In this document: positions 10,933-27,540 of the stretch, piece by piece
Layout of the letters: each line of letters opens with the position of its first letter
Numbering within the stretch: position 1 is the first letter of the stretch
Virus record (IMG/VR): IMGVR_UViG_2585427737_000003
Length of the DNA stretch: 27,540 nucleotides
Reading direction: 5' to 3' (one strand)
Source: a virus
Lineage: Duplodnaviria > Heunggongvirae > Uroviricota > Caudoviricetes
The notes under the pieces: model-generated
What the model saw: only the letters and a program-made list of their open reading frames with translations
The model's database searches: none
Told to the model about the DNA's origin: nothing
Position numbers and translations under genes: made by a program

Positions 10933-11573
10933 TTGTCGGTATACCTCTCTCGTTTGCTCAGTTGTTCAGGAATATGGTGCAGCAGCTCGCCATCACCACA
11001 GTAAATGGCGGCATGATTCGGCACCGATGAACCAAAACAGCACAGCAGCACATCGCCCGGCTGCGCCGCTGACAACGGCACCTGATACAGCCCTGTGGCC
11101 TCCAGATTATCCAGATAGAGATTCTGACCGTGACGCCACCAGTTATCCCCGCGATGAAAATCCGGCATCTCAATTCCCGCCAGATGGTAAGCGTCCCGGA
11201 ACAGCGTGTAACAGTCCGTCACCCCGTGCTCAAAGCGCCGCCCGGTGAGATGCGGCACACAGCGGAATTTATGAATCGCCCCCCGGCAGACCAGCCACCA
11301 CGGCAAATCACTCTGTACCTGCAGCCGCCGGTCGGCCTCACTCAGCCAGGGCAGACCACCGGGGTGGCTGTGGACCAGCGCCACAATCTCTCCCTGCATT
11401 TCTGCACTCAGCCAGTCCTCCGGCGACATCCGGAAATACGCCTCCGGCTCACCGGAGATATTCACGCAGGGAAAATATCTTTCCTCCTCCGGCGTTCTCA
11501 CCACGAAGCCGCACGACTCCGCTGGCGCACATCGCCGGGCGTGCGCCAGAATCGCTGATTCTGTCTCTGTCAT
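10830..11573 (-). CDS. K: Tail tip assembly protein K (JAB/MPN-like HSHP motif plus NlpC/P60-like region)
   Basis: 247 aa MTETESAILAHARRCAPAESCGF... with HSHPGG motif; matches lambda K; overlaps the start of I as in lambda. Confidence 0.85.
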   Translation of the reverse strand: MTETESAILAHARRCAPAESCGFVVRTPEEERYFPCVNISGEPEAYFRMSPEDWLSAEMQGEIVALVHSHPGGLPWLSEADRRLQVQSDLPWWLVCRGAIHKFRCVPHLTGRRFEHGVTDCYTLFRDAYHLAGIEMPDFHRGDNWWRHGQNLYLDNLEATGLYQVPLSAAQPGDVLLCCFGSSVPNHAAIYCGDGELLHHIPEQLSKRERYTDKWQRRTHSLWRHRAWRASAFTGICNDLAAASTFV

Positions 11574-11578
11574 GGGAT

Positions 11579-12277
11579 TTACTGCGAAAGTTTGTTAATG
11601 GAAAGGAAGCTGCCAAAGTTGCCGACATTATTGCGAAACTTACAGCCACTCAGGCATTTGCTGCATTTATCCTTCGTGATATCGGACGTCGGCTGGTCAT
11701 ATTCATCCGCGACCGCCGGACCGCTATAACCGCACTCATCGCCGCGATAGGTCCAGGTGCAGGTGTTGGCCAGCATGATACGTCCCGGAAAAACAGCGCC
11801 ATCCGTTTCAGTCGGCGTGGACAGTACAAAAGAGGCACTGACCGCGCTCAGTTCGCTGCACTGCTCGATGCGCCAGCGGCTGATCACCTCCTGCTCCGGA
11901 TCGGCTTCGCTGTTTCCGTTGACGAAGTTCACCGCATCCAGAAAGCGGGCGTAAACCTTACGCCGGACCACCGTTCCGCCGACCAGACTCTGCAGATCTT
12001 CCGCCATCCCGGTGATCATGCCGTACAGGTTAGAAACCGTCAGCGTGGGGCGCGTACTGGTGCCTTTGCCATTCAGTTCAAAACCGCTCCCCTGAATGGG
12101 ATACGGCTGATACTGTCGCCCCTGCCAGGTGACCGGCTCACCTTTTTCGTTCTGCTCATTACAGAAAAAATAACGTTCTCCACCGACCTCTGTCAGGTCG
12201 ATTTCCCAGAGCACCACGCTGGCCGACTGCTCCGCACGGGTGCATTCATTCAGTGTTTCCTGCCGGATATCCTGCAT
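11579..12277 (-). CDS. L: Tail tip protein L
   Basis: 232 aa MQDIRQETLNECTRAEQSASVVLWEIDLTEVGGERYFF..., near-identical to lambda L. Confidence 0.9.
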   Translation of the reverse strand: MQDIRQETLNECTRAEQSASVVLWEIDLTEVGGERYFFCNEQNEKGEPVTWQGRQYQPYPIQGSGFELNGKGTSTRPTLTVSNLYGMITGMAEDLQSLVGGTVVRRKVYARFLDAVNFVNGNSEADPEQEVISRWRIEQCSELSAVSASFVLSTPTETDGAVFPGRIMLANTCTWTYRGDECGYSGPAVADEYDQPTSDITKDKCSKCLSGCKFRNNVGNFGSFLSINKLSQ

Positions 12278-12606
12278 CAGTTCACCACCTGTTCAAACTC
12301 TGCGCTGAACTCAACACGCAGCATACTGACCCGCGACGACCATTTTGCGCAGGTCACCTTTATCTGCCGCCACTCATAAGGCGGCGTCCACAGAAAGGAT
12401 TTCCAGCCCCCGTGCTCTTCCAGAAACGACTCCAGTACCGTGGCCTCCTCACGGGGGACAGAAAGCGTCACGCTGTACGTTTTCAGGTTGGCATTCAGCC
12501 CGGCAGGCGCTCGCTGGGAATAGCCATCACCAAAGCGCACCTTTCTTACAGAAGGGACCGAAGCCACATCCATACCGGGTTTCACTTTCCAGCGGAAGGT
12601 CTTCAT
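12277..12606 (-). CDS. M: Tail tip protein M
   Basis: 109 aa MKTFRWKVKPGMDVASVPSVRKVRFGDGYSQRAPAGLNANLKTYS..., matches lambda M. Confidence 0.9.
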   Translation of the reverse strand: MKTFRWKVKPGMDVASVPSVRKVRFGDGYSQRAPAGLNANLKTYSVTLSVPREEATVLESFLEEHGGWKSFLWTPPYEWRQIKVTCAKWSSRVSMLRVEFSAEFEQVVN

Positions 12607-15182
12607 CGTCCACCTCCGGAGAACAGGCCACCATCACGCATCTGTGTCTGAATTTCATCACGGGCACCCTTGCGGGCCATGTCATACACCGCCTTCAGAG
12701 CAGCCGGACCTATCTGCCCGTTCGTGCCGTCGTTGTTAATCACCACATGGTTATTCTGCTCAAACGTCCCGGACGCCTGCGACCGGCTGTCTGCCATGCT
12801 GCCCGGTGTACCGACATAACCGCCGGTGGCATAGCCGCGCATCAGGCGGTACAGGTTGCCGACACCAATCCGGCTGGTTGCCTCCTTCGTGAAGACAAAT
12901 TCACCACGGTGAACAATCCCCGCTGGCTCATATTTGCCGCCGGTTCCCGTAAATCCCCCGGTCGCAAAATGGAATTTCGCCGCAGCGGCCTGAATGGCTG
13001 TACCGCCTGACGCGGATGCTCCACCACTGGCAGCACCGCCAATGGCGCTGCCGATACTCCCGACAATCCCCACCATTGCCTGCTTAAGCAGAATTTCTGT
13101 CATCATGGACAGCACGGAACGGGTGAAGCTGCGCCAGTTCTGCTCACTGCCGGTCAGCATCGCCGCCATATTCTGCGCAATACCATCAAAGGTCTGCGCG
13201 GCTGCACTTTTAACCTGCGACATACTGTCCGTGGCGCTCTCTTCCCACTCACTCCAGCCGGACTTCAGGCCTGCCATCCAGCTCCCGCGAAGCTGGTCTT
13301 CAGCCGCCCAGGTCTTTTTCTGCTCTGACATGACGTTATTCAGCGCCAGAGGATTATCGCCATACTGTTCCTTCAGGCGCTGTTCTGTGGCTTCCCGCGC
13401 TGCCTGCCGGTCAGTCAGCCCCCGGCTTTTCGCATCAATGGCGGCCCGTTTTGCCCGTTGCTGCTGTGCGAATTTATCCGCCTGCTGCGCCAGCGCGTTC
13501 AGGCGCTCCTGATACGTAACCTTGTCGCCAAGTGCAGCCAGCTGGCGTTTGTACTCCAGCGTCTCATCTTTATGCGCCAGCAGGGATTTCTCCTGTGCGG
13601 ATAGCTGGCGACGTTGTGCCGCCTCCTCCAGTACCGCGAACTGATTTTCAGCCTTCCACAAATCCCGGCGCTGCTGGCTGATTTTCTCATTTGCTCCGGC
13701 ATGCTTCTCCAGCGTCCGGAGTTCTGCCTGAAGCGTCAGCAGGGCAGCATGAGCACTGTCTTCCTGACGATCGCCCGCAGACACTTTCACGCCGGACTGT
13801 TTCGGCTTTTTCAGCGTCGCTTCATAATCCTTTTTCGCCGCCGCCATCAGCGTGTTGTAATCCGCCTGCAGGATTTTCCCGTCTTTCAGTGCCTTGTTCA
13901 GTTCTTCCTGACGGGCGGTATATTTCTCCAGCGGCGTCTGCAGCCGTTCGTAAGCCTTCTGCGCCTCTTCGGTATATTTCAGCCGTGATGCCTCAGACTC
14001 GGCCCAGTCCTTTGCTGCCATCTCTCTGGCCTTTTCAAGATCGGCCTGCAACGTGGCGGCTGAAAGTCCAAGTTGCGCATTCGCTCTGTCCTCCCATGCT
14101 CCCCGGAGATTGGCACGAAATGCTGAGGTTTTACCGCGCCGGTGGCTCCGGCTCTGATACCACTGCCATTTTTTGTCCGCCTCATCAAAAGCCTTTTCTG
14201 CTTTCTCCAGCATTCCCTGGGCAGTGTCCGGGCGACCAATATCCAGCACCGAATCCCACATGGATTTGAATGCCCGTGCTGTCCTGTCTGCCCAGGTCTC
14301 CAGCGTGCCCATGTTCTCTTTCAGGCGGCGGGTCTGGTCATCAAACCCTTTCGTTGCGGCCTCGTTCGCCGCCTGCAATGCCCCGGCTTCATCTCCGGAA
14401 CGCTGCAACTGAGCAACATACGCAATCTGCTCCGCCGTCACGTTATGGAACTGACGTGCCATCGCTGTCAGTCCCGACGTCGGGTCTGTGGTCAGCTTCC
14501 CGAAGGCTTCAGCGACCTTGTCCACCTCCACGCCGGATGCAGAGGAGAAACGCGCCACACTCTGGCTGATCGCCTCAAACTGCTCACCACCACGCACACC
14601 GGCATTCACCAGCGCCGTCAGTGACTCGCTGGTCTGGTTAAACGTCAGCCCTGCCGCCTGCCCGGCTCTGGACAGGACCAGCATACGATCTGCCGTCAGT
14701 CCCGCCTGATTGCCGGAAAGGACCAGCGTTTTGTTGAAATCGGACAGGGTTGAGTTGCCCTGATACCAGGCATACGCCAGCGCACCGGTCGCCACCGCCA
14801 GCGAGGTGGCCCCCACCATCGGCAGGGTGATCGCACCGGCAAGCCCCCTGAACATGGGGATCATCCCGCCGAAGGAGTCCTTAACCTGACCCCCCTGTTG
14901 CAGCAGGATCAGCCACGGACTTTGCCCGCCTGCAAGCTGCGTGGCCACGTCGGTGAACTGTGCAGGCAGCATACGCATGGCGGCTTTATACTGTCCGACG
15001 GAAATCCCCGCTTTCTGTGCAGCCAGCGCCTGCCGGTTCATTGACTGTTCAACGACTGCCGCTGTTTTTTTCGCATCACTTTCCGTATCGGAAAAATGAC
15101 GCCTGACTCTGGCCATCTGCTCGTCAAATCTGGCCGCATCCAGACTCAAATCAACGACCAGATCGCCTACCGGTTCAGCCAT
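12603..15182 (-). CDS. H: Tail tape measure protein H
   Basis: 859 aa MAEPVGDLVVDLSLDAARFDEQMARVRRHFSDTESDAKK..., matches lambda H (which I recall as 853 aa). Confidence 0.95.
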   Translation of the reverse strand: MAEPVGDLVVDLSLDAARFDEQMARVRRHFSDTESDAKKTAAVVEQSMNRQALAAQKAGISVGQYKAAMRMLPAQFTDVATQLAGGQSPWLILLQQGGQVKDSFGGMIPMFRGLAGAITLPMVGATSLAVATGALAYAWYQGNSTLSDFNKTLVLSGNQAGLTADRMLVLSRAGQAAGLTFNQTSESLTALVNAGVRGGEQFEAISQSVARFSSASGVEVDKVAEAFGKLTTDPTSGLTAMARQFHNVTAEQIAYVAQLQRSGDEAGALQAANEAATKGFDDQTRRLKENMGTLETWADRTARAFKSMWDSVLDIGRPDTAQGMLEKAEKAFDEADKKWQWYQSRSHRRGKTSAFRANLRGAWEDRANAQLGLSAATLQADLEKAREMAAKDWAESEASRLKYTEEAQKAYERLQTPLEKYTARQEELNKALKDGKILQADYNTLMAAAKKDYEATLKKPKQSGVKVSAGDRQEDSAHAALLTLQAELRTLEKHAGANEKISQQRRDLWKAENQFAVLEEAAQRRQLSAQEKSLLAHKDETLEYKRQLAALGDKVTYQERLNALAQQADKFAQQQRAKRAAIDAKSRGLTDRQAAREATEQRLKEQYGDNPLALNNVMSEQKKTWAAEDQLRGSWMAGLKSGWSEWEESATDSMSQVKSAAAQTFDGIAQNMAAMLTGSEQNWRSFTRSVLSMMTEILLKQAMVGIVGSIGSAIGGAASGGASASGGTAIQAAAAKFHFATGGFTGTGGKYEPAGIVHRGEFVFTKEATSRIGVGNLYRLMRGYATGGYVGTPGSMADSRSQASGTFEQNNHVVINNDGTNGQIGPAALKAVYDMARKGARDEIQTQMRDGGLFSGGGR

Positions 15183-15615
15183 ACCGGACTCCTCCTGCGA
15201 TCCCTTCTGATACTGTCATCAGCATTACGTCATCCTCCGTCATGTCCGCCACATCCGGGGAAGCGGGGATAACTTCATTCCCGTCCGGGCCAAAGCGGAC
15301 GCCTCCGGCAAGCCCTGCCGCTTTCTGCATCAGCACATCATCTTCAGGCTCTTCGTCAGCCTCACGCCGGTTCAGCAAACTGAAATCCAGCGGATGCATA
15401 TCCGGATCGCTGAAAAACAGGCTGAGTACGGTGTACGTCAGCCCGGAAAAGTGCATATCCAGCAGAACATCATGAAAATAATGGGTACTGTAAAAGCGGT
15501 GCCAGTCGGCATACTCCGTGGATGACATCCCGGCAAGCATGGCGCGCCAGTCGGGTCGCCCCATCTCACGCGCCAGTTTCAGGGCAAAACTCAGCTCACC
15601 GTCGAACACTTTCCC
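15175..15615 (-). CDS. T: T segment of the G-T tail assembly chaperone (made only by -1 frameshift from G)
   Basis: T reading frame (V)FDGELSFALKLAREMGRPDWRAMLAGMSSTEYADWHRFY... matches lambda T; begins at the slippery heptamer. Confidence 0.8.
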   Translation of the reverse strand, partial: GKVFDGELSFALKLAREMGRPDWRAMLAGMSSTEYADWHRFYSTHYFHDVLLDMHFSGLTYTVLSLFFSDPDMHPLDFSLLNRREADEEPEDDVLMQKAAGLAGGVRFGPDGNEVIPASPDVADMTEDDVMLMTVSEGIAGGVRYG

Positions 15616-16011
15616 GCAGAAACAGGCTCTGCTGGCCCGGCGTCATCTGCCTGTTCAGGTGCATCATTCACAACAAACTCAGACATACCGGACAGACGCA
15701 TTACCACATTTTCAGCCTGAGCAATTGCCTCTGTGGGCCAGGTGGTAAGCACTTCCTGCTCAATTTGTTTAACGGCTTCATTCATGGACGGCATCTGCGT
15801 CTTCTGCGGATGGCTATGCCACAGGGACATCGCCACCAGAAACGCGCCGGTTCTGACGAGTCTTCCACACTAAACTGCCGATTGAGACTGACCCCGCCTG
15901 TTCTGCCTGTCGTTTCAGCAGGGCGAGATGCTCAATTCGCTGCAGGGCTGACAGTTCAGAAAGCGTGACGCTCACACCGTTATATTCAAATGATTCGGTT
16001 TTCAGGAACAT
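15591..16011 (-). pseudogene. G: Tail assembly chaperone G, interrupted (split into 65 aa and 81 aa ORFs by indels)
   Basis: N-terminal ORF MFLKTESFEYNGVSVTLSELSALQRIEHLALLKRQAEQA then leaves frame and stops at 15814; C-terminal ORF MAMSLWHSHPQKTQ...AGKCSTVS resumes in another frame; lambda G is a single 140 aa protein. Confidence 0.7.
15609..15615 (-). promoter_or_regulatory. G-T programmed -1 ribosomal frameshift slippery site (GGGAAAG on the coding strand)
   Basis: Heptamer gggaaag sits at the end of the G frame (..SAGKCSTVS stop) with the T frame continuing in -1. Confidence 0.75.
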
Positions 16012-16026
16012 CGCTGACTCTCCGGA

Positions 16027-16767
16027 TTAACTGTCGGTGACGGTGATTTCTGCAACCACAGCAAACTCACCATTACCGGATACAACCGGAATGTTGACCT
16101 TGCCTGCAGCAACACCTTTCACGGTGATGGTCATACCACTGACCGACACGGTGACTTTTGTTTTATCCGCAGACACCGCACGGAAGCTCTTGTCAGTTGC
16201 ACCCTCCGGCTGGAATGCCACGGTCAGCGTGGTGCTCTGCCCTTTCACCACCGAGGAGCTGGCAGGCGTCACAGTCATACCGGTTGCCGCCGTCACCGTA
16301 CTGCGATCTTCTGCCATTGACGGACGGCCCACATTGGTGACCTTCACCGTACGGGTGATCACTTCCTTCGCCGTCACCGCCTTACCGATACTGCTGACCC
16401 AGCCACGGAACACATCGACCGTGCCGTTCGGGAAGCGGATTTTATAGGCACGGGTATCGCCTTCATTAAACCACGCCAGCAGCGCCTGCTGCCCCTGCTC
16501 TCCGGGCATCCACGCCAGCGTGAAGCTGGTATCTCCGGCAGATTTCTGCCCCTGCCCGGTCGCAGTCCAGTCTGCATCTTCATCATCGAGATAGCTGTCG
16601 TCATAGGACTCAGCGGTCAGTTCGCCGGGCGTCAGGTCTTTAACTTTTGCCAGACGCGACCAGTCAACGTCTGAAAGCGGATTCGCATAAGGGTCACCGC
16701 TTCCCTTATAAACCCACAGGGTGGTCCCGGCACCTTTCACCGGCATTACAGGATTTGGTACAGGCAT
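16027..16767 (-). CDS. V: Major tail protein V
   Basis: [31 protein letters not shown]..., 246 aa from the ATG at 16767 (ORF track extends 10 codons upstream, into U); gagga RBS. Confidence 0.9.
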
Positions 16768-16774
16768 AGCGTCC

Positions 16775-17170
16775 TCACATTTCATAGGTAATGACATAAG
16801 TCAGATCGGCTGAACTCCACAGGCCCGCATCATCGTCGCGCCGGTAGTCATAGCCGCTGGCCACCATACTGGTGATCAAATCTGACAGTGCCGGGACATC
16901 GCTCATCACCGGATAAATCCGGGACTCCATCCACGAATCCAGCTCTGAATCCGGCACCTGAGCAGGCAGGAAAACTTCAATATGCAGCTCCGCCTGCCAG
17001 GTATCACTGTCCAGCTCTTCGCCCGTGTATTCAGCGCCGGTGAGATAAACGGCAATTGCCGGAAAATCCGCCTCATCAAAAACAGCGGGGCGACCATCAA
17101 AAAACGTCGCCCCGGTGTCATGCTTCTCCAGTGCATCCAGTACGGCTGCACGGAGTTCAGTATGTTTCAT
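16775..17170 (-). CDS. U: Tail terminator protein U
   Basis: [37 protein letters not shown]..., 131 aa from the ATG at 17170 (ATGA overlap with the Z stop). Confidence 0.9.
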
Positions 17171-17745
17171 CGCTTTATTACCATCCTCAGTTGATGCTGC
17201 AGCGCATAGCCCAGCTCTTTCGGAAGACATTCACGCCGTATCCGTTCAATATTCTGTTTAAACGCCGTGGTAAGCGGCACCGCCATCGGGATTTTCACCA
17301 CATCAATGGGGTAACGGTTTTTCCCGGCCACACGCTGCATGACATGCCACCGGCCATTTTTCAGTTGCTGAATAAACGCGCCGGGAATACGACGGTTTCC
17401 CACCACAAGCACGCTGCCGCCACCTTTCAGGGATGAACGCTGCCCCTTTTTACGACGCCTGCGGCGCGAAAGGACAACCCGCGCGTTACCCAGCTTGATT
17501 ACGGGCAAATCCCCCCGGTTAACCCTGATTCTGGCCTGCGGATTTTTGACCGTGGCCCTTTTCAGCCTGGCCCTTTCCTTTACCAGTTTCCGGCGTACCT
17601 TTGTCTCACGGGCAACCTGTGACGCAGACTGCGATATCGCGGATGACGCAACGCGGTTAATGGTCATTGCGGCGGCACCAGGCACCGCCGTTTTGCTGAT
17701 ACGGCTGAGGTTTTCAACGGCCTGCTCAAGACCTTTTATGGCCAT
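17167..17745 (-). CDS. Z: Tail completion protein Z
   Basis: 192 aa MAIKGLEQAVENLSRISKTAVPGAAAMTINRVASSAISQ..., matches lambda Z. Confidence 0.9.
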   Translation of the reverse strand: MAIKGLEQAVENLSRISKTAVPGAAAMTINRVASSAISQSASQVARETKVRRKLVKERARLKRATVKNPQARIRVNRGDLPVIKLGNARVVLSRRRRRKKGQRSSLKGGGSVLVVGNRRIPGAFIQQLKNGRWHVMQRVAGKNRYPIDVVKIPMAVPLTTAFKQNIERIRRECLPKELGYALQHQLRMVIKR

Positions 17746-17756
17746 ACATCCCCCTT

Positions 17757-18110
17757 TCAGCGGCGACGGTTAACGGCAGGCGGTACGCCCCGCCCAAGCC
17801 AGAGATGACAGCTTCCGCCATCATCCGGCGAAATCCGGTCTATCCAGAAGTTTTCCTCACCGATGGTCAGCGTGTCGCCGCGCCGCAGCTGCCGCACATC
17901 ATCAGTCCGGACAAACAGGGACGGGCTGGAGCCTTCAACGCGCACCCCCTGTCCGGCATAGCTGATATTTTCAGGGTCATCAAAAACACCACGTATCACC
18001 GCACCTGACTGCTCACCGGATGTCATGGTGGCTGACGTTCCCATGTACCCGCGTATCGTTTCATCGGCGCGGGCAATGGCAGCATCGAACAGGTTATCGA
18101 AATCAGCCAC
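17757..18110 (-). CDS. FII: Head-tail joining protein FII
   Basis: 117 aa MADFDNLFDAAIARADETIRGYMGTSATMTSGEQSGAVIRGVFDD..., matches lambda FII. Confidence 0.9.
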   Translation of the reverse strand: MADFDNLFDAAIARADETIRGYMGTSATMTSGEQSGAVIRGVFDDPENISYAGQGVRVEGSSPSLFVRTDDVRQLRRGDTLTIGEENFWIDRISPDDGGSCHLWLGRGVPPAVNRRR

Positions 18111-18121
18111 AGCGCCTCCCG

Positions 18122-18508
18122 TTATTGCATTCTGGCCAGGCCGCGCTCTGTCATTTCGGCTGCCACACCGGCAGAGACACGAAACGCCGTTCCCGGCAGC
18201 ACAAATGCCACAGGTTCATCCCGCGTGGCGTGAAGTGCATCGGTATGCAGCGTCACCAGTGCCACAACCGTGACCAGAGCAGCCGTATCAGTCACGGTAT
18301 CCGGCTGCGCTGATACCACCTCATTTTCATGTCCGGTCAGCGCATTTTCCGGGCTGAGAGGGGTATCCTGATCGGCAGTGTCATCAAGCTCCTCTTCCAG
18401 CTCTGCCACACGGAGCGCCAGTTCTTCTTTCGTCCCCGTCAGGCTGACATCACGGTTCAGTTGCTCACCCAGCTCCTGAAGACGGGCAATCAGTTCATCT
18501 TTCGTCAT
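18122..18508 (-). CDS. FI: DNA-packaging / head assembly protein FI
   Basis: MTKDELIARLQELGEQLNRDVSLTGTKEELALRVAEL..., start taken at the ATG at 18508 preceded by ggagg. Confidence 0.85.
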   Translation of the reverse strand: MTKDELIARLQELGEQLNRDVSLTGTKEELALRVAELEEELDDTADQDTPLSPENALTGHENEVVSAQPDTVTDTAALVTVVALVTLHTDALHATRDEPVAFVLPGTAFRVSAGVAAEMTERGLARMQ

Positions 18509-18530
18509 GAACTCCTCCACAGAGAGAAAA

Positions 18531-18546
18531 TGGCCCCGAAGGGCCA
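18531..18546 (-). promoter_or_regulatory. Stable hairpin with UUCG-type tetraloop plus U-rich tail in the E-FI spacer
   Basis: tggccc ttcg gggcca on the transcribed strand, followed by ttttctctct, then the ggagg RBS and FI ATG. Confidence 0.4.
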
Positions 18547-18549
18547 TGA

Positions 18550-19575
18550 TTACGCCAGTTGTACGGACACGAACGCATCAGGATCAGCCAGCAGCATCAG
18601 CGGTGCTGACTGAATCATGGTGAACTCACGCGCCGGATCGCCGGTGGTCACCCAGTTTTTCGGGTAGCGGGCAGAGGCGTTAATACCTTCGCGCTGTGCG
18701 TCCGCATCCTGAATGCAGCCATAGGTGCGCAGACCGCGTGCCTGAGTGTTCCCCAGCACCATCGTGTTGTCCGGAAGGAAGTTCTTTTTGACGTCGTTTT
18801 CCACGTACTGTCCGGAATACACGACGATCGCCGTATCGCCATACATCCCCTTATAGGACACCGCTTCGCCCAGGTCTTTTACCGCTGTCTCCAGCTCGGA
18901 ATTAGAGCCGCGACGGGTATCCAGCTTCTCCTTGACGGCTTTGAAGGAACGGAACAGCGCCCAGCCTTTCGGATCAAACACGATGATATTCACCACTCCG
19001 CTGGCGTTCAGCGCATAGGCTTCGATATCGTCGGTCGGGTCATACGTGGACTTGTCACGCTTGCTCCACTCCGTGCCGCCGGACTGCGTGATGTTGTTGG
19101 CCGCACTGCGGCCCATATCCACCTCAACCGGATCGAAAGCTTCACCGGTCATGGTGTATTTGCCCTTAAGCACAGCAGAAACTGCCTGCATCTCTTCGAC
19201 CTGAGCAATGGCCAGCTCTTCGTCTCGCATGTTCTGCATGATGATGCGACGGCGGCGGTAAGCCGGGTCCGCCAGATTCTGCGGATCTTCATCCGGCAGG
19301 CGACGCAGGGTCATCTGCGGATTCACCTCATGCTTCGGCTTGACATATCCCGGTGTAAATTCAGAGGTGGAGCCGCCACGGGAGCGGATAACCTCACCGG
19401 AAACAATCGGCGAAACGTACAGCGCCATGTTTACCAGTCCCGGAATTTGTGAGAGATAGACTTTCTCCGTGGTGAAGGGATAGCTCTCACGGAAAAAGAG
19501 ACGCAGAAACAGCGGATCAAACTTAAATTTCTTCTCATTTGCCGCCAGCAGCTGGGCGGTTGTGTACATCGACAT
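18550..19575 (-). CDS. E: Major capsid protein E
   Basis: MSMYTTAQLLAANEKKFKFDPLFLRLFFRESYPFTTEKVYLSQIPGLVNMALYVSPIVSG..., 341 aa from the ATG at 19575. Confidence 0.95.
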   Translation of the reverse strand: MSMYTTAQLLAANEKKFKFDPLFLRLFFRESYPFTTEKVYLSQIPGLVNMALYVSPIVSGEVIRSRGGSTSEFTPGYVKPKHEVNPQMTLRRLPDEDPQNLADPAYRRRRIIMQNMRDEELAIAQVEEMQAVSAVLKGKYTMTGEAFDPVEVDMGRSAANNITQSGGTEWSKRDKSTYDPTDDIEAYALNASGVVNIIVFDPKGWALFRSFKAVKEKLDTRRGSNSELETAVKDLGEAVSYKGMYGDTAIVVYSGQYVENDVKKNFLPDNTMVLGNTQARGLRTYGCIQDADAQREGINASARYPKNWVTTGDPAREFTMIQSAPLMLLADPDAFVSVQLA

Positions 19576-19589
19576 AAAAAAATCCCGTA

Positions 19590-19609
19590 AAAAAAGCCGC
19601 ACAGGCGGC
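19590..19609 (-). promoter_or_regulatory. Hairpin (gccgc ctgt gcggc) plus T6 in the D-E spacer; terminator-like element inside the late operon
   Basis: 5 bp GC stem, 4 nt loop and six T on the transcribed strand, read from sequence. Confidence 0.35.
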
Positions 19610-19630
19610 CTTTAGTGATGAAGGGTAAGG

Positions 19631-19963
19631 TTAAACGATGCTGATTGCCGTTCCGGCAAACGCGGTCCGTTTTTTCGTCTCGTCGCTGGCAGCCTCCGGC
19701 CAGAGCACATCCTCATAACGGAACGTGCCGGACTTGTAGAACGTCAGCGTGGTGCTGGTCTGGTCAGCAGCAACAGCAAGAATGCCAACGGCAGCACCGT
19801 CGGTGGTGCCATCCCACGCAACCAGCTTACGGGTGGAGGTGTCCAGCATCAGCGGGGTCATTGCAGGCGCTTTCGCACTCAATCCGCCTGGCGCGGTTGC
19901 GGTATGAGCCGGGTCACTGTTGCCCAGCGGCTGGTAATGGGTAAAGGTTTCTTTGCTCGTCAT
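19631..19963 (-). CDS. D: Capsid decoration protein D
   Basis: [43 protein letters not shown]..., 110 aa, matches lambda D. Confidence 0.9.
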
Positions 19964-19972
19964 AAACATCCC

Positions 19973-20578
19973 TTACACTGGTGTGTTCAGCAAATCGTTA
20001 ACGGCATCAGATGCCGGGTTACCTGTAGCCAGCGGTGCCGGTGCCCCCTGCATCAGACGATCCAGCGCAGTGTCACTGCGCGCCTGTGCACTCTGTGGTG
20101 CAGCTGCCAGAATGCGGCGGGCCGTTTCCACGGTCATACCGGGGGTTTCTGCCAGCACGCGGGCCTGTTCTTCGCGTCCGTGAGCCTCCTCACAGTTGAG
20201 GATCCCCATAATGCGGCTGTTTTCTGCCGCAACCGCTGCAGTGATCTGCGCGTTCACGTCCGGCTGCGCCGCGCTGGCGTTTTCGCCCTCCGTCGCTGGC
20301 ACCACGTCAGTAACGTCAGTCTGCGAAGCAGTGGCTGAAACAGTTGTTGATTGAGTCTCTTTGGTCATTCGCCCTCCTGAGAGACGGGATTTATGTGCAT
20401 CCAGTGCATCACGCATGACGGTGATCGCATCGGTGCTGTTAACAAGTTCATCAGCCAGTCCGGCATCAATGGCCTCCTGACCGCTGTACACTGCAGCCTC
20501 GGTATCCAGCACAGCCTGCACAGACAGGCCGGTATATGCCGACACCTTCTGCGCAAACATCTGGCGGGTTGCGTCCAT
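19973..20578 (-). CDS. Nu3: Scaffolding protein Nu3 (nested in-frame in the 3' part of C)
   Basis: Internal in-frame ATG at 20576-20578 (MDATRQMFAQKVSAYTGLSVQ...) about 201 codons before the C stop, consistent with the lambda C/Nu3 arrangement as I recall it. Confidence 0.55.
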   Translation of the reverse strand: MDATRQMFAQKVSAYTGLSVQAVLDTEAAVYSGQEAIDAGLADELVNSTDAITVMRDALDAHKSRLSGGRMTKETQSTTVSATASQTDVTDVVPATEGENASAAQPDVNAQITAAVAAENSRIMGILNCEEAHGREEQARVLAETPGMTVETARRILAAAPQSAQARSDTALDRLMQGAPAPLATGNPASDAVNDLLNTPV

Positions 20579-21272
20579 CCGGGACTGCAGTGTCTCCCGG
20601 ACGTCATCCGGAAGATGGCTGTAAGGATTGCCATCCACCTTATGGCTGCCGCTGTAAATCAGCGTGATTTCCACACCCTGTTTCTCCAGGGCAGCACCGT
20701 AATTACTGTGAGCCATCATGACGCCGATGGAGCCTGTCCGGGCGGTCTGCGTGACCAGACGCCGGGAGGCGGCACTGGCAAGCAGCTGACCTGCACTGCA
20801 GTTCATGTCGTTGGCCAGCGCCCATACCGGTTTTATGTCACGCACACGGGCGATGATGTCAGCGCAGTCAAATGCCCCCGCCACCATTCCGCCTGGCGTG
20901 TCCATATCGAGCAGAATGCCGTCCACCATCGGGTCGCTGGCAGCCTGTTGCAGACGGGCGATAATGCCGTTGTAACCGGTCATCCCCGAGTACGGCTGCA
21001 GCGCCCGCGTCCGGCTGACCAGCGTGCCGGACACCGGCAGCACGGCGATGCCGTTCATGACCTGATAACTGCGGGCCTGTCGTGGTCCGTCATCATCACC
21101 GGATAACGCCAGCGTCGCGAGTGTCTCCTGGGCAGTCAGGCTGTCACCGGACACCGCATCCGTCAGGCGGCTGATCCCAAGCTGGCCTGCAAGCGCACAA
21201 AAGAAAACCCGCGCATAGGCGGGTTCAAGCATCAGCGGCTCATTAAAGGCCATGCTGGCAATATGCGGGAGA

Positions 21273-21292
<20 letters not shown>
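19973..21292 (-). CDS. C: Capsid assembly protease C
   Basis: (V)TAELRNLPHIASMAFNEPLMLEPAYARVFFCALAGQLG..., 439 aa from a GTG at 21290-21292 preceded by ggaggag; the ORF track's longer upstream extension overlaps B and is not used. Confidence 0.9.
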
Positions 21293-24973
<3,681 letters not shown>

Positions 24974-24999
<26 letters not shown>

Positions 25000-25519
25000 T
25001 CAGCAACCCCGGTATCAGTTCATCCAGCGCGGCTGCTTTGTTCATGGCTTTGATGATATCCCGTTTCAGGAAATCAACATGTCGGTTTTCCAGTTCCGGA
25101 AAACGCCGCTGCACCGACAGGGGGATCCCGTCGAGAATACTGGCAATTTCACCTGCGATCCGCGACAACACGAAAGTACAGAATGCGGTTTCCACCACTT
25201 CAGCGGAGTCTCTGGCATTCTTCAGTTCCTGTGCGTCGGCCTGCGCACGCGTAAGTCGATGGCGTTCGTACTCAATAGTCCCTGGCTGGAGATCTGCCTC
25301 GCTGGCCTGCCGCAGTTCTTCAACCTCCCGGCGCAGCTTTTCGTTCTCAATTTCAGCATCCCTTTCGGCATACCATTTTATGACGGCGGCAGAGTCATAA
25401 AGCACCTCATTACCCTTGCCACCGCCTCGCAGAACGGGCATTCCCTGTTCCTGCCAGTTCTGAATGGTACGGATACTCGCACCGAAAATGTCAGCCAGCT
25501 GCTTTTTGTTGACTTCCAT
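24974..25519 (-). CDS. Nu1: Terminase small subunit Nu1
   Basis: 181 aa MEVNKKQLADIFGASIRTIQNWQEQGMPVLRGGGKGNEVLYDSAAVIKWYAERD..., matches lambda Nu1; 3' end overlaps A. Confidence 0.9.
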
Positions 25520-25770
25520 TGTTCATTCCACGGACAAAAACAGAGAAAGGAAACGACAGAGGCCAAAAAGCCCGTTTTCAGCACCTGTCGTTTCCTTTCT
25601 TTTCAGGGGGTGTTTTAAATAAAAACATTAAGTTACGACGAAGAAGAACGGAAACGCCTTAAACCGGAAAATTTTCATAAATAGCGAAAACCCGAGAGGT
25701 CGCCGCCCCGTAACCTGTCGGATCGCCGGAAAGGACCCGCAAAATGATAATAATTATCATCTGCATGTCA
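25520..25770. other. cos region (cosB - cosN - cosQ) with the two genome ends joined; 12 nt cohesive-end sequence aggtcgccgccc at 25697-25708
   Basis: Reverse complement of the lambda cohesive end GGGCGGCGACCT found at 25697-25708, flanked on one side by the Nu1-proximal region and on the other by ...cgtaacctgtcggatc... resembling the lambda right end. Confidence 0.8.
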
Positions 25771-25907
25771 CAACGTGCATCTACGCCATCAAACCACGTC
25801 AAATAATCAATTATGACGCAGGTATCGTATTAATTGATCTGCATCAACTTAACGTAAAAACAACTTCAGACAATACAAATCAGTGACACTGAATACAGGG
25901 CAACCTC

Positions 25908-26141
25908 ATGTCAACGAAGAACAGAACCCGCAGAACAACAACCCGCAACATCCGCTTTCCTAACCAAATGATTGAACAAATTAACATCGCTCTTGATCAA
26001 AAAGGGTCCGGGAATTTCTCAGCCTGGGTCATTGAAGCCTGCCGCCGGAGACTGTGCTCAGAAAAAAGAGTTTCTCCTGAAGCAAACAAAGAAAAGAGTG
26101 ACATTACTGAATTGCTCAGAAAACAGATCAGACCAGATTGA
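25908..26141 (+). CDS. Small basic protein, putative ribbon-helix-helix DNA-binding fold (conserved ORF near the lambda right end)
   Basis: 77 aa MSTKNRTRRTTTRNIRFPNQMIEQINIALDQKGSGNFSAWVIEACRRRL...; Arg-rich N-terminus followed by a strand-helix-helix-like pattern; product assignment is tentative. Confidence 0.55.
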   Translation: MSTKNRTRRTTTRNIRFPNQMIEQINIALDQKGSGNFSAWVIEACRRRLCSEKRVSPEANKEKSDITELLRKQIRPD

Positions 26142-26199
26142 AGCAATTTAGATAATCGTGCAGACTACGCCCCCCTCATATCACATGGAAGGTTTATCT

Positions 26200-26610
26200 A
26201 TGGATCAGGTAGTCATTTTTAAACAAATATTTGATAAAGTTCGAAACGATTTAAACTATCAATGGTTTTATTCTGAGCTAAAACGTCATAATGTCTCACA
26301 TTACATTTACTATTTAGCCACAGAGAATGTTCATATTGTATTAAAAAATGATAATACAGTGTTATTAAAGGGCCTAAAAAACATTGTGTCTGTCAAATTT
26401 TCAAAGGATAGGCATCTTATAGAAACGACCTCTAATAAGCTGAAATCCAGAGAGATCACATTTCAGGAATACAGAAGAAACCTTGCTAAAGCAGGAGTTT
26501 TTCGGTGGGTTACAAATATCCACGAACAAAAAAGATATTACTATGCCTTTGATAATTCATTACTCTTTACTGAAAACATACAGAGCACATCACAAATGTT
26601 TCCACACTAA
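26200..26610 (+). CDS. Hypothetical protein, YbcV/DUF1398-like (conserved between the lysis region and cos in lambdoid phages)
   Basis: [61 protein letters not shown]...; start placed at the second ATG (26200), which has a ggaagg RBS; the ORF track begins at 26158. Confidence 0.6.
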
Positions 26611-26942
26611 ACCATAACGTCCGGTTTCTTCTACCCCTGCACCGGACTGGCTGACATGAAGAGCAACCCCGCGTTCAGTTGACGCGTTAATAACCCGGTG
26701 TGCATCGTTTTTGATTATTCCCGCACACTCACGCAGAAGGAATTCCCCGTCGGGCTACGGTCATGGTTAATGCGGGAATACGGCGACGATACAGCGCATG
26801 ATGTGTCAGGCTTGAATACCTTTATCCGTTAAAAGGGATATCAGTTAAGTTATCCCGTGCAGGGTATAAGCCATTATCAAGCCCCCCGTAGATAGGCTTT
26901 GTAATGACATCTTCAATTAATCAGCAGTTCAGGCTGTGTCAC

Positions 26943-27540
26943 CGTAAGCGACTCGTCAGAACCGTATTGATATTTACTGAGAGCTCAGATCAACTTTCCA
27001 GGGCAACAGATCGCGTACCCGGTTTGCCGGCCAGTCCTGGATATGTTCAATGACGTAACGCAGCCACTTTTCTGGCTCCACATTGTTCAGACGGCATGTG
27101 CCGATCAGCGAGTACAACACCGCCGCATGTTCACCACCGCTGTCGGAACCCGCGAACATCCAGTTTTTCCGGCCTACGGCCACTCCCCGTAAGGCGTTCT
27201 CTGCGATGTTGTTGTCGATTTCCACCCAGCCATTACTGCAGTACACGTTCAGTGCATCCCACTGTTTCAGCAGGTATGCGAACGCTTTTGCCGTATCTGA
27301 GTGACGCGACAGTGTTTTCATCTGTTGCTGTATCCAGTCATACAGTGACTGCATCAGTGGCGCGGCTCTGGCTTTTCTTGCCGCCAGACGCTGTTCTGCT
27401 GAACAGCCCCGGACCTCTGCCTCGATGGCATACAGTTCACCGATACGCTGCAGGGCTTCCGTGGTGATGTCGGTGGGCGCTCTTGCATGCACATCGTGGA
27501 TTTTTCTCCGGGCATGAGCCATACACGCGGCTTCCGTTAT
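26943..27540 (-). mobile_element. IS66-family insertion sequence, partial (outer end near 26943 with GTAAGCG terminus; continues beyond the window)
   Basis: IS66-family transposase C-terminus encoded on the minus strand; gtaagcg motif at 26943-26949 resembles the conserved IS66-family terminal repeat start. Confidence 0.7.
26974..27540 (-). CDS. IS66-family transposase (TnpC-like), C-terminal portion; N-terminus outside window
   Basis: ...[128 protein letters not shown]..., typical of IS66-family transposases; reading frame is open to the window edge. Confidence 0.75.

Follow-up and report, generated by a model that had tools for sequence, protein, structure and literature searches.

A probable simple insertion of an ISCro1-type element into the 3′ end of rha in a lambdoid Escherichia coli prophage split between draft contigs

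One copy of the IS66-family element ISCro1 very probably transposed into the 3′ end of rha in the lambdoid prophage analyzed here, with nothing deleted and with the prophage continuing beyond the element. The window, meaning the whole stretch of DNA that was analyzed (27,540 bp), makes up all of contig JORD01000131.1 in the draft assembly GCA_000713025.1 (positions 11273–27540 were matched exactly). Because it is a complete draft contig, both of its ends are assembly breaks in multi-copy repeats; the IS junctions are real, and that the sequence stops after them is due to the assembly and not to the genome. In the proposed sequence of events, ISCro1 (2,699 bp) would have inserted 28 nt upstream of the rha stop codon, duplicating the 8-bp sequence GTGTCACC, and the far side of the element would carry, in this order, rha, orf50, Rz, R, S, a porin gene (opposite strand), Q and the nin region. 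The window would begin 566 bp from the end of an IS1 copy and stop 597 bp into ISCro1 simply because draft contigs break off at repeats present in many copies. We regard this as an ordinary insertion of an IS into an ordinary lambdoid prophage, in a strain related to ETEC.

The start of the element was placed at 26944. When 5,426 complete E. coli genomes were searched with megablast, many prophages were found to be 99.7%–99.8% identical to the window over 25500–26943, and in all of them the similarity ended at 26943. Relatives without the IS match the window up to this base, after which the window switches to GTAAGCGACTCG… (GTAAGCGACTCGTCAG… in the alignment). The original prediction had an IS66-family element beginning near 26943, which agrees with this boundary and with the profile matches of the transposase: the part of TnpC in the window (188 aa), which has no stop or frameshift, matched Pfam DDE_Tnp_IS66 (E = 6.6e-46), Pfam DDE_Tnp_IS66_C (E = 1.1e-16) and NCBIfam transpos_IS66 (203.8 bits, cut-off 180). 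Joined with the portion on JORD01000133.1, a contig that encodes the N-terminal LZ and zinc-finger domains, TnpC comprises 523 codons with LZ, zinc-finger, DDE and C-terminal IS66 domains. The organization is tnpA-tnpB-tnpC, since JORD01000133.1 has genes of 225 aa and 115 aa and then tnpC; the same organization was found in three other copies (L002, L004, L014), 99.8%–99.9% identical. The inverted repeats of the full element are GTAAGCGACTCG… and GTAACCGGCTC…, and its imperfect terminal repeats of the form GTAA(G/C)CG (GTAAGCGACTCGTCAGAACCGT from 26944, GTAACCGGCTCATTTAAACCGT at the other end) agree at 18 of the first 26 positions by our count. The IS genes lie on the minus strand, which is the direction of the late genes.

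Over 26944–27540 the window differs at 1 of 597 bases (99.8% identity) from the copy in APEC17, which RefSeq assigns to the ISCro1 family; the name ISCro1 rests here on RefSeq/PGAP labels of copies 99.8% identical and not on an ISfinder reference. The element has each IS66-family feature that was tested and, going by the RefSeq labels, is ISCro1, a well-known IS. ISCro1 was named first in Citrobacter rodentium and is widespread in E. coli. At 27471 the window has C, while the APEC17 copy and both sister contigs have A, a difference that, by our hand translation of the codon, presumably changes Tyr to Asp in TnpC. The C is either a variant of another IS copy that was drawn into the contig end or an assembly error.

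The 333-bp stretch between the end of the DUF1398 gene, whose transcription leads away from cos to the IS, and the start of the element was examined for damage. By blastn, lambda (J02459) positions 48502–48141 aligned with window positions 25709–26070 (94.8%) and positions 47527–46868 with 26125–26798 (79.9%), and there was no alignment with J02459 past 26798 in the window, so that lambda-like sequence ends close to where it had been predicted to decay (after about 26790). The homology stops about 115 bp short of the bor position in lambda. The sequence that follows (26799–26943) is an rha module, the same as in IS-free relatives over the aligned stretch, and the spacer as a whole is likewise undamaged, being identical to these relatives over the stretch that aligns. 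Rfam scans of 25500–27540 found zero RNA families, and a promoter and terminator scan of the spacer gave nothing above background.

In the IS-free relatives (99.8% identical to the window up to 26943; examples are L001 from strain 1162invT2, L003 and L007–L011), the gene order is DUF1398, rha, orf50, Rz, R, S, porin, Q and the nin region. In these relatives, rha (174 aa; 7414–7938 in L001) is on the strand opposite to DUF1398, the porin gene is on the strand opposite to the lysis genes, and the intact Rha homolog matches the Pfam/NCBIfam phage_pRha profile. Pfam Lambda_Bor was absent from the window, from JORD01000133.1 and from the closest relatives, which have rha there; bor is missing here because its place is taken by the rha module in this prophage lineage. 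Lambdoid prophages differ in what occupies this mosaic slot, which contains bor (L019, L026), DUF1398 alone (L015–L017, L020–L023) or DUF1398 with a KilA-N gene (L014, L025), and DUF1398 with rha is a further mosaic variant.

The remainder of the late region is lambda-like: there is a cos sequence, Nu1 and A are next to it, Nu1, A, W, B, C, D, E, FI … J follow the lambda order, and Q, S, R and Rz are present on the sister contig JORD01000133.1. The IS is about 1.2 kb from cos on the right-end side, leaving the cos sequence itself well clear. Identical copies of the 77-aa DUF3950 protein were found in many relatives. In the public collection, the exact DUF1398 protein occurred in 1018 blocks and the exact terminase A in 10106, while the portal protein allele of the window was rare.

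A simple insertion predicts an Rha::IS fusion protein of 172 aa that ends in …LQVTRNRLI in place of …LQVTQPELLIN. Exactly this protein was found in public data (WP_032215362.1 and KEM15666.1 are among its accessions; E. coli 6-319-05_S1_C1), encoded on JORD01000133.1 (9,254 bp), which belongs to the same assembly as the window; one sister assembly and two Logan read-set assemblies contain the fusion ORF as well. The far junction was as predicted, with …GAGCCGGTTAC, GTGTCACC and TGCAAGATG… in direct succession, and the 8-bp sequence GTGTCACC is thus found at both ends of the IS. When the flanks were joined without the IS and one copy of the duplication, they aligned collinearly and without any indel to uninterrupted L001, at 38 mismatches in 2,700. 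The reading frames of Q, S, R, Rz and orf50 are free of internal stops, and their proteins are identical to those of the relatives. The original prediction, in which the IS replaces the bor/lysis side of the prophage, was not borne out: the end of rha is kept, and past 27540 intact, full-length Rz, R, S and Q do follow right beyond the IS and its target duplication on JORD01000133.1, as read across two contigs. Its supposition that Q and the late promoter are situated past the IS was correct, Q being on this contig.

JORD01000131.1 and JORD01000133.1 each cover one part of the IS and overlap in it by 355 bp with one mismatch (C versus A at 27471). No private SNP was found that links the IS part in the window to the IS next to rha, the sole variant being the C at 27471, which is absent from both sister contigs. 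A search for the 36-nt junction TTCAGGCTGTGTCACCGTAAGCGACTCGTCAGAACC gave 0 matches in genome_contigs and 0 in metagenome_contigs, and neither the complete E. coli RefSeq genomes nor the phage records contained the exact junction. We infer from the shared duplication and the collinear flanks that the two contigs would be adjacent in the genome. The features are collected in Table 1.

Table 1. Positions of the features discussed, in the window, on the sister contig and in prophages with other ISCro1 insertions
Feature	Sequence	Coordinates	Strand	Remarks
IS1 copy, right-hand 566 bp	window	1–566	+	cut by contig start; element end …AATAAGTTGGAGTCATTACC at 566
Terminase A	window	23074–24999	−	
Terminase Nu1	window	24974–25519	−	adjoins cos on the left
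cos cohesive-end sequence GGGCGGCGACCT	window	25697–25708	−	lambda right end (48502) aligns at 25709
YlcI/YnfO-family gene, 77 aa	window	25908–26141	+	intact; Pfam DUF3950, E = 4.9e-21
DUF1398 (YbcV-like) gene, 136 aa	window	26200–26610	+	intact; Pfam DUF1398, E = 2.8e-46
Spacer, DUF1398 to rha	window	26611–26912		lambda-like to 26798, then rha module
rha 3′ remnant	window	26913–26943	−	TGA stop (26913–26915) and last 9 codons (…VTQPELLIN*)
Target-site duplication GTGTCACC, copy 1	window	26936–26943		copy 2 on JORD01000133.1, directly after the other IS end
ISCro1-type (IS66-family) element, right-end 597 bp of 2,699 bp	window	26944–27540	−	cut by contig end
Transposase TnpC, C-terminal 188 codons	window	26974–27540	−	runs off the window
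nin region	JORD01000133.1 (L031)			first in gene order
Q, 127 aa	JORD01000133.1			
Porin, 360 aa	JORD01000133.1			opposite strand
S, 71 aa	JORD01000133.1			
R, 165 aa	JORD01000133.1			
Rz, 155 aa	JORD01000133.1			
orf50	JORD01000133.1			
rha, 172 aa	JORD01000133.1			
ISCro1 tnpA	JORD01000133.1			
ISCro1 tnpB	JORD01000133.1			
ISCro1 tnpC, first 453 codons	JORD01000133.1			to contig end
ISCro1 near DUF1398-rha	L002	7220–9918		
ISCro1 near DUF1398-rha	L004	10564–13262		
ISCro1 near DUF1398-rha	L014	5619–8317		
ISCro1 near DUF1398-rha	L013	38503–43651		
ISCro1 near DUF1398-rha	L025	8524–11222		
ISCro1 near DUF1398-rha	window	26944		

Three other readings of the junction were weighed. That the IS marks a deletion of bor and of the lysis/Q side, leaving the late module isolated between IS elements, would fit a window that ends within the IS and has no lambda homology past 26798, but 26799–26943 is identical to IS-free relatives and contains the 3′ end of rha, the same assembly has the opposite end of the IS, next to the same 8-bp duplication and then the intact rest of rha, Rz, R, S and Q, and bor does not belong to this prophage lineage, its slot being mosaic in other relatives; this reading is exceedingly improbable. 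It is refuted by JORD01000133.1 unless the contigs come from a second, otherwise identical prophage. We consider it just as hard to credit that the junction is an assembly chimera and that the real genome has no IS at the site, which uninterrupted would read …GGCTGTGTCACCTGCAAGATG…. The window is indeed a draft contig ending in repeats, and a contig of the sister assembly (L030) appears chimeric at another IS66-family remnant; against this, both junctions exist and match through the 8-bp duplication, the window contig was recorded in three samples and the far-junction contigs likewise in three, and the fusion ORF is also in the two Logan read-set assemblies.

Somewhat less remote, although still very improbable, is that a simple ISCro1 insertion was followed by homologous recombination between IS copies that inverted or moved a segment, so that the head-tail block now lies apart from Q and the lysis genes. 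Such an inversion or translocation between ISCro1 copies would keep both junctions unchanged; the source genome is IS-rich, with IS1 and two IS66-family types at contig ends; the 355-bp overlap of the contigs holds one mismatch; and in the HMDUC-17 group an ISCro1 in this place lacks a perfect duplication (CATCAGTC versus CTCAGTTC), as would follow from occasional recombination between copies. All closed relatives with an IS in the region, however, keep the prophage collinear across it, and one mismatched base close to the end of a contig, within a collapsed repeat, carries little weight and may reflect reads of mixed IS copies. A simple insertion with an otherwise continuous prophage was retained as the preferred reading.

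Through the insertion, the last seven residues of Rha (QPELLIN) are replaced by RNRLI, and the distance between the lysis cassette and cos grows by 2,707 bp. Rha-family genes at this position are, we assume from P22 and phi80 rha, accessory, and the change at the Rha C terminus should not matter for phage growth. Since Q and the late promoter region are located on the far side of the IS, the element is inside the late transcription unit, and late transcripts of Nu1-A…J would have to cross it. Lambda-type Q renders RNA polymerase resistant to terminators, and a simple consensus scan, which is blind to Rho-dependent termination, found no terminator-like site in the full IS on the strand of the late transcript; for these two reasons strong polarity of the IS on the late genes is predicted to be unlikely. 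Q-modified RNA polymerase would probably read through the IS, with weak polarity on Nu1-A…J, and the added length would use up packaging capacity. For the prophage, the ISCro1 insertion would thus mean altered last residues of Rha and 2.7 kb more in the late operon.

Insertions of ISCro1 were also found elsewhere in the prophage family, with perfect 8-bp duplications at five other sites (APEC17, L004, L014, L013 and L018). Four of the five are in or near the spacer, the one in L013 being inside rha in the opposite orientation, while that in L018 is in gene Z; the spacer insertions in APEC17 and L004, equivalent to 26715–26722 and 26755–26762 of the window, are independent. Counting the window, six independent ISCro1 insertions from different strains fall within about 400 bp, and five of the six are oriented with late transcription. 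These were retrieved with the DUF1398-rha region as the query, which biases the sample, and we consider it distinctly doubtful that the approximately 400 bp close upstream of cos, beginning at the DUF1398 stop and reaching into the 3′ end of rha, are a preferred ISCro1 landing site in lambdoid prophages. Were it so, the element might prefer the region or its structure as a target, or insertions there might be selected because the prophage stays viable.

Two of these copies have features of their own. The ISCro1 in L013 is interrupted by a second IS66-family element. In L025 (strain HMDUC-17), where ISCro1 separates the DUF1398 module from the KilA-N module, the flanks (8516–8523 versus 11223–11230) do not form a perfect duplication; the other seven strains of the H1–H8 group probably share this imperfect duplication, and the L025 junction may be a recombinant between two IS copies.

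At the left edge of the window, the predicted IS1 is present: an insB-type ORF (48–551) matched NCBIfam transpos_IS1 (E = 6.4e-42), and homology to IS1-free relatives begins at 567, right behind …AATAAGTTGGAGTCATTACC. The accompanying claim that IS1 replaces the b region was unsupported, since the diguanylate-cyclase gene (584–1915, plus strand) is already the last gene in IS1-free relatives and lies about 640 bp from the att core. The closest complete relatives of this prophage are at the lambda attB next to bioA; in ETEC strain 602354 (L013), the closest of all (99.2% identity over 567–26943), the prophage is at the att site by bioA-ybhB, with the att core about 640 bp to the left of the equivalent of window position 567 and no annotated gene between them. 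No ORF crosses the site of the IS1 far junction in the relatives. The IS1 end (566) is 17 bp before the ATG (584) of the gene for the GGDEF diguanylate cyclase (443 aa, identical to the L013 protein), and IS1 reads toward this gene; from its position, the insertion could change expression of the diguanylate-cyclase cargo gene. As for the head-tail block being bracketed by two insertion sequences, both junctions are present, but the bracketing also marks the points where the assembler stopped. In draft assemblies in general, a module "bracketed by IS elements" may only reflect such stops, and neighbors that seem missing may sit on another contig.

Several other differences from L013 were seen in the window. 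The tail assembly chaperone gene G (15591–16013, minus strand) has single-base deletions at 15861 and 15890, and public gene calls split G into pieces of 65 aa and 79 aa. Because the window contig was recorded in three samples, random sequencing error is argued against as the source of this lesion, which would also disrupt the G-T frameshift product. In FI (18122–18508, minus strand) there is an in-frame 9-bp deletion at 18378 (128 versus 131 aa), and this 128-aa FI is shared with the prophage L026, whose lysis module differs. The stf ORF (2855–5974, minus strand) stops 93 codons earlier than that of L013 (1039 versus 1132 aa), leaving a 281-bp gap (2574–2854) before the tail fiber assembly gene; this could be a frameshift or a different allele, as the surrounding sequence has diverged. 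Within the tail fiber assembly gene (1989–2573), positions 2032–2230 (minus strand) matched the full length of Rfam IS009 (RF02111), scoring 225 bits where the gathering score is 117; no other Rfam family was found in the window.

JORD01000133.1 shows a third IS junction within positions 1–781. Here the terminal part of another type of IS66-family element (…GACGCTTAC), which matches at 100% identity an element of L012 that has a 537-aa TnpC, abuts the prophage immediately upstream of a 33-codon ORF and ybcN, both in the nin region. The contig ends there, and the junction maps, via L006, inside a 60-codon ORF of the relatives. In the sister assembly (GCA_000713015.1), a 222-aa remnant of an IS66-family transposase at positions 1–4488 of JORE01000030.1 (L030) links the nin region to genes of the TolC family, to ABC-permease genes and to the gene for a 116-aa secreted protein. 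All of these linked genes are on 142–148 kb plasmids in the closest closed ETEC genomes (99.5% identity), and the join is probably a chimera at a shared repeat. The TolC, ABC and secreted-protein genes may resemble the aat/cexE cluster.

That the prophage is decaying and cryptic, as originally predicted, would rest on other lesions, mainly that in G, and is given no support by the ISCro1 insertion. The prophage may be decayed or defective, mainly on account of the G frameshift, and we infer that frameshifted G is the best candidate for a real prophage defect and a better explanation than ISCro1. Any verdict of defectiveness on this ETEC-type prophage should rest on G and on the IS junctions at the nin region and near attR.

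Compared with known systems, the element agrees with ISCro1 in identity (99.8% to copies so labeled by RefSeq), tnpA-tnpB-tnpC organization, the 523-aa TnpC, GTAA… terminal repeats and an 8-bp duplication, and differs in length, with 2,699 bp between the repeats here versus 2,824 bp quoted for the ISCro1 copy of EC958 (PMC8764528). Insertions of ISCro1 in intergenic regions of E. coli and their transcriptional effect have been described (PMC8764528). The right end of lambda (Rz, bor, p78/YbcV-like, p79, cos) is resembled in its cos and in the DUF3950 and DUF1398 genes; Nu1 and A are on the other side of cos in the window, and, unlike in lambda, DUF1398 and Rz are separated in this prophage lineage by an Rha-family gene and a 50-codon ORF, and S and Q by a porin gene. 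Classical IS insertions are known from lambda operons, where antitermination by the phage relieves their polarity. Here, too, the IS is in an operon read by antiterminated polymerase, although those insertions sit in N-dependent early operons, whereas this one is in the Q-dependent late operon. Like the IS-rich defective lambdoid prophages of E. coli (DLP12, Rac and Qin types), the prophage has several IS junctions (IS1, ISCro1 and a second IS66-family element) and a frameshift in the essential gene G; unlike them, it has nothing deleted at the ISCro1 junction, and its head, tail, lysis and Q genes were otherwise seen to be full length.
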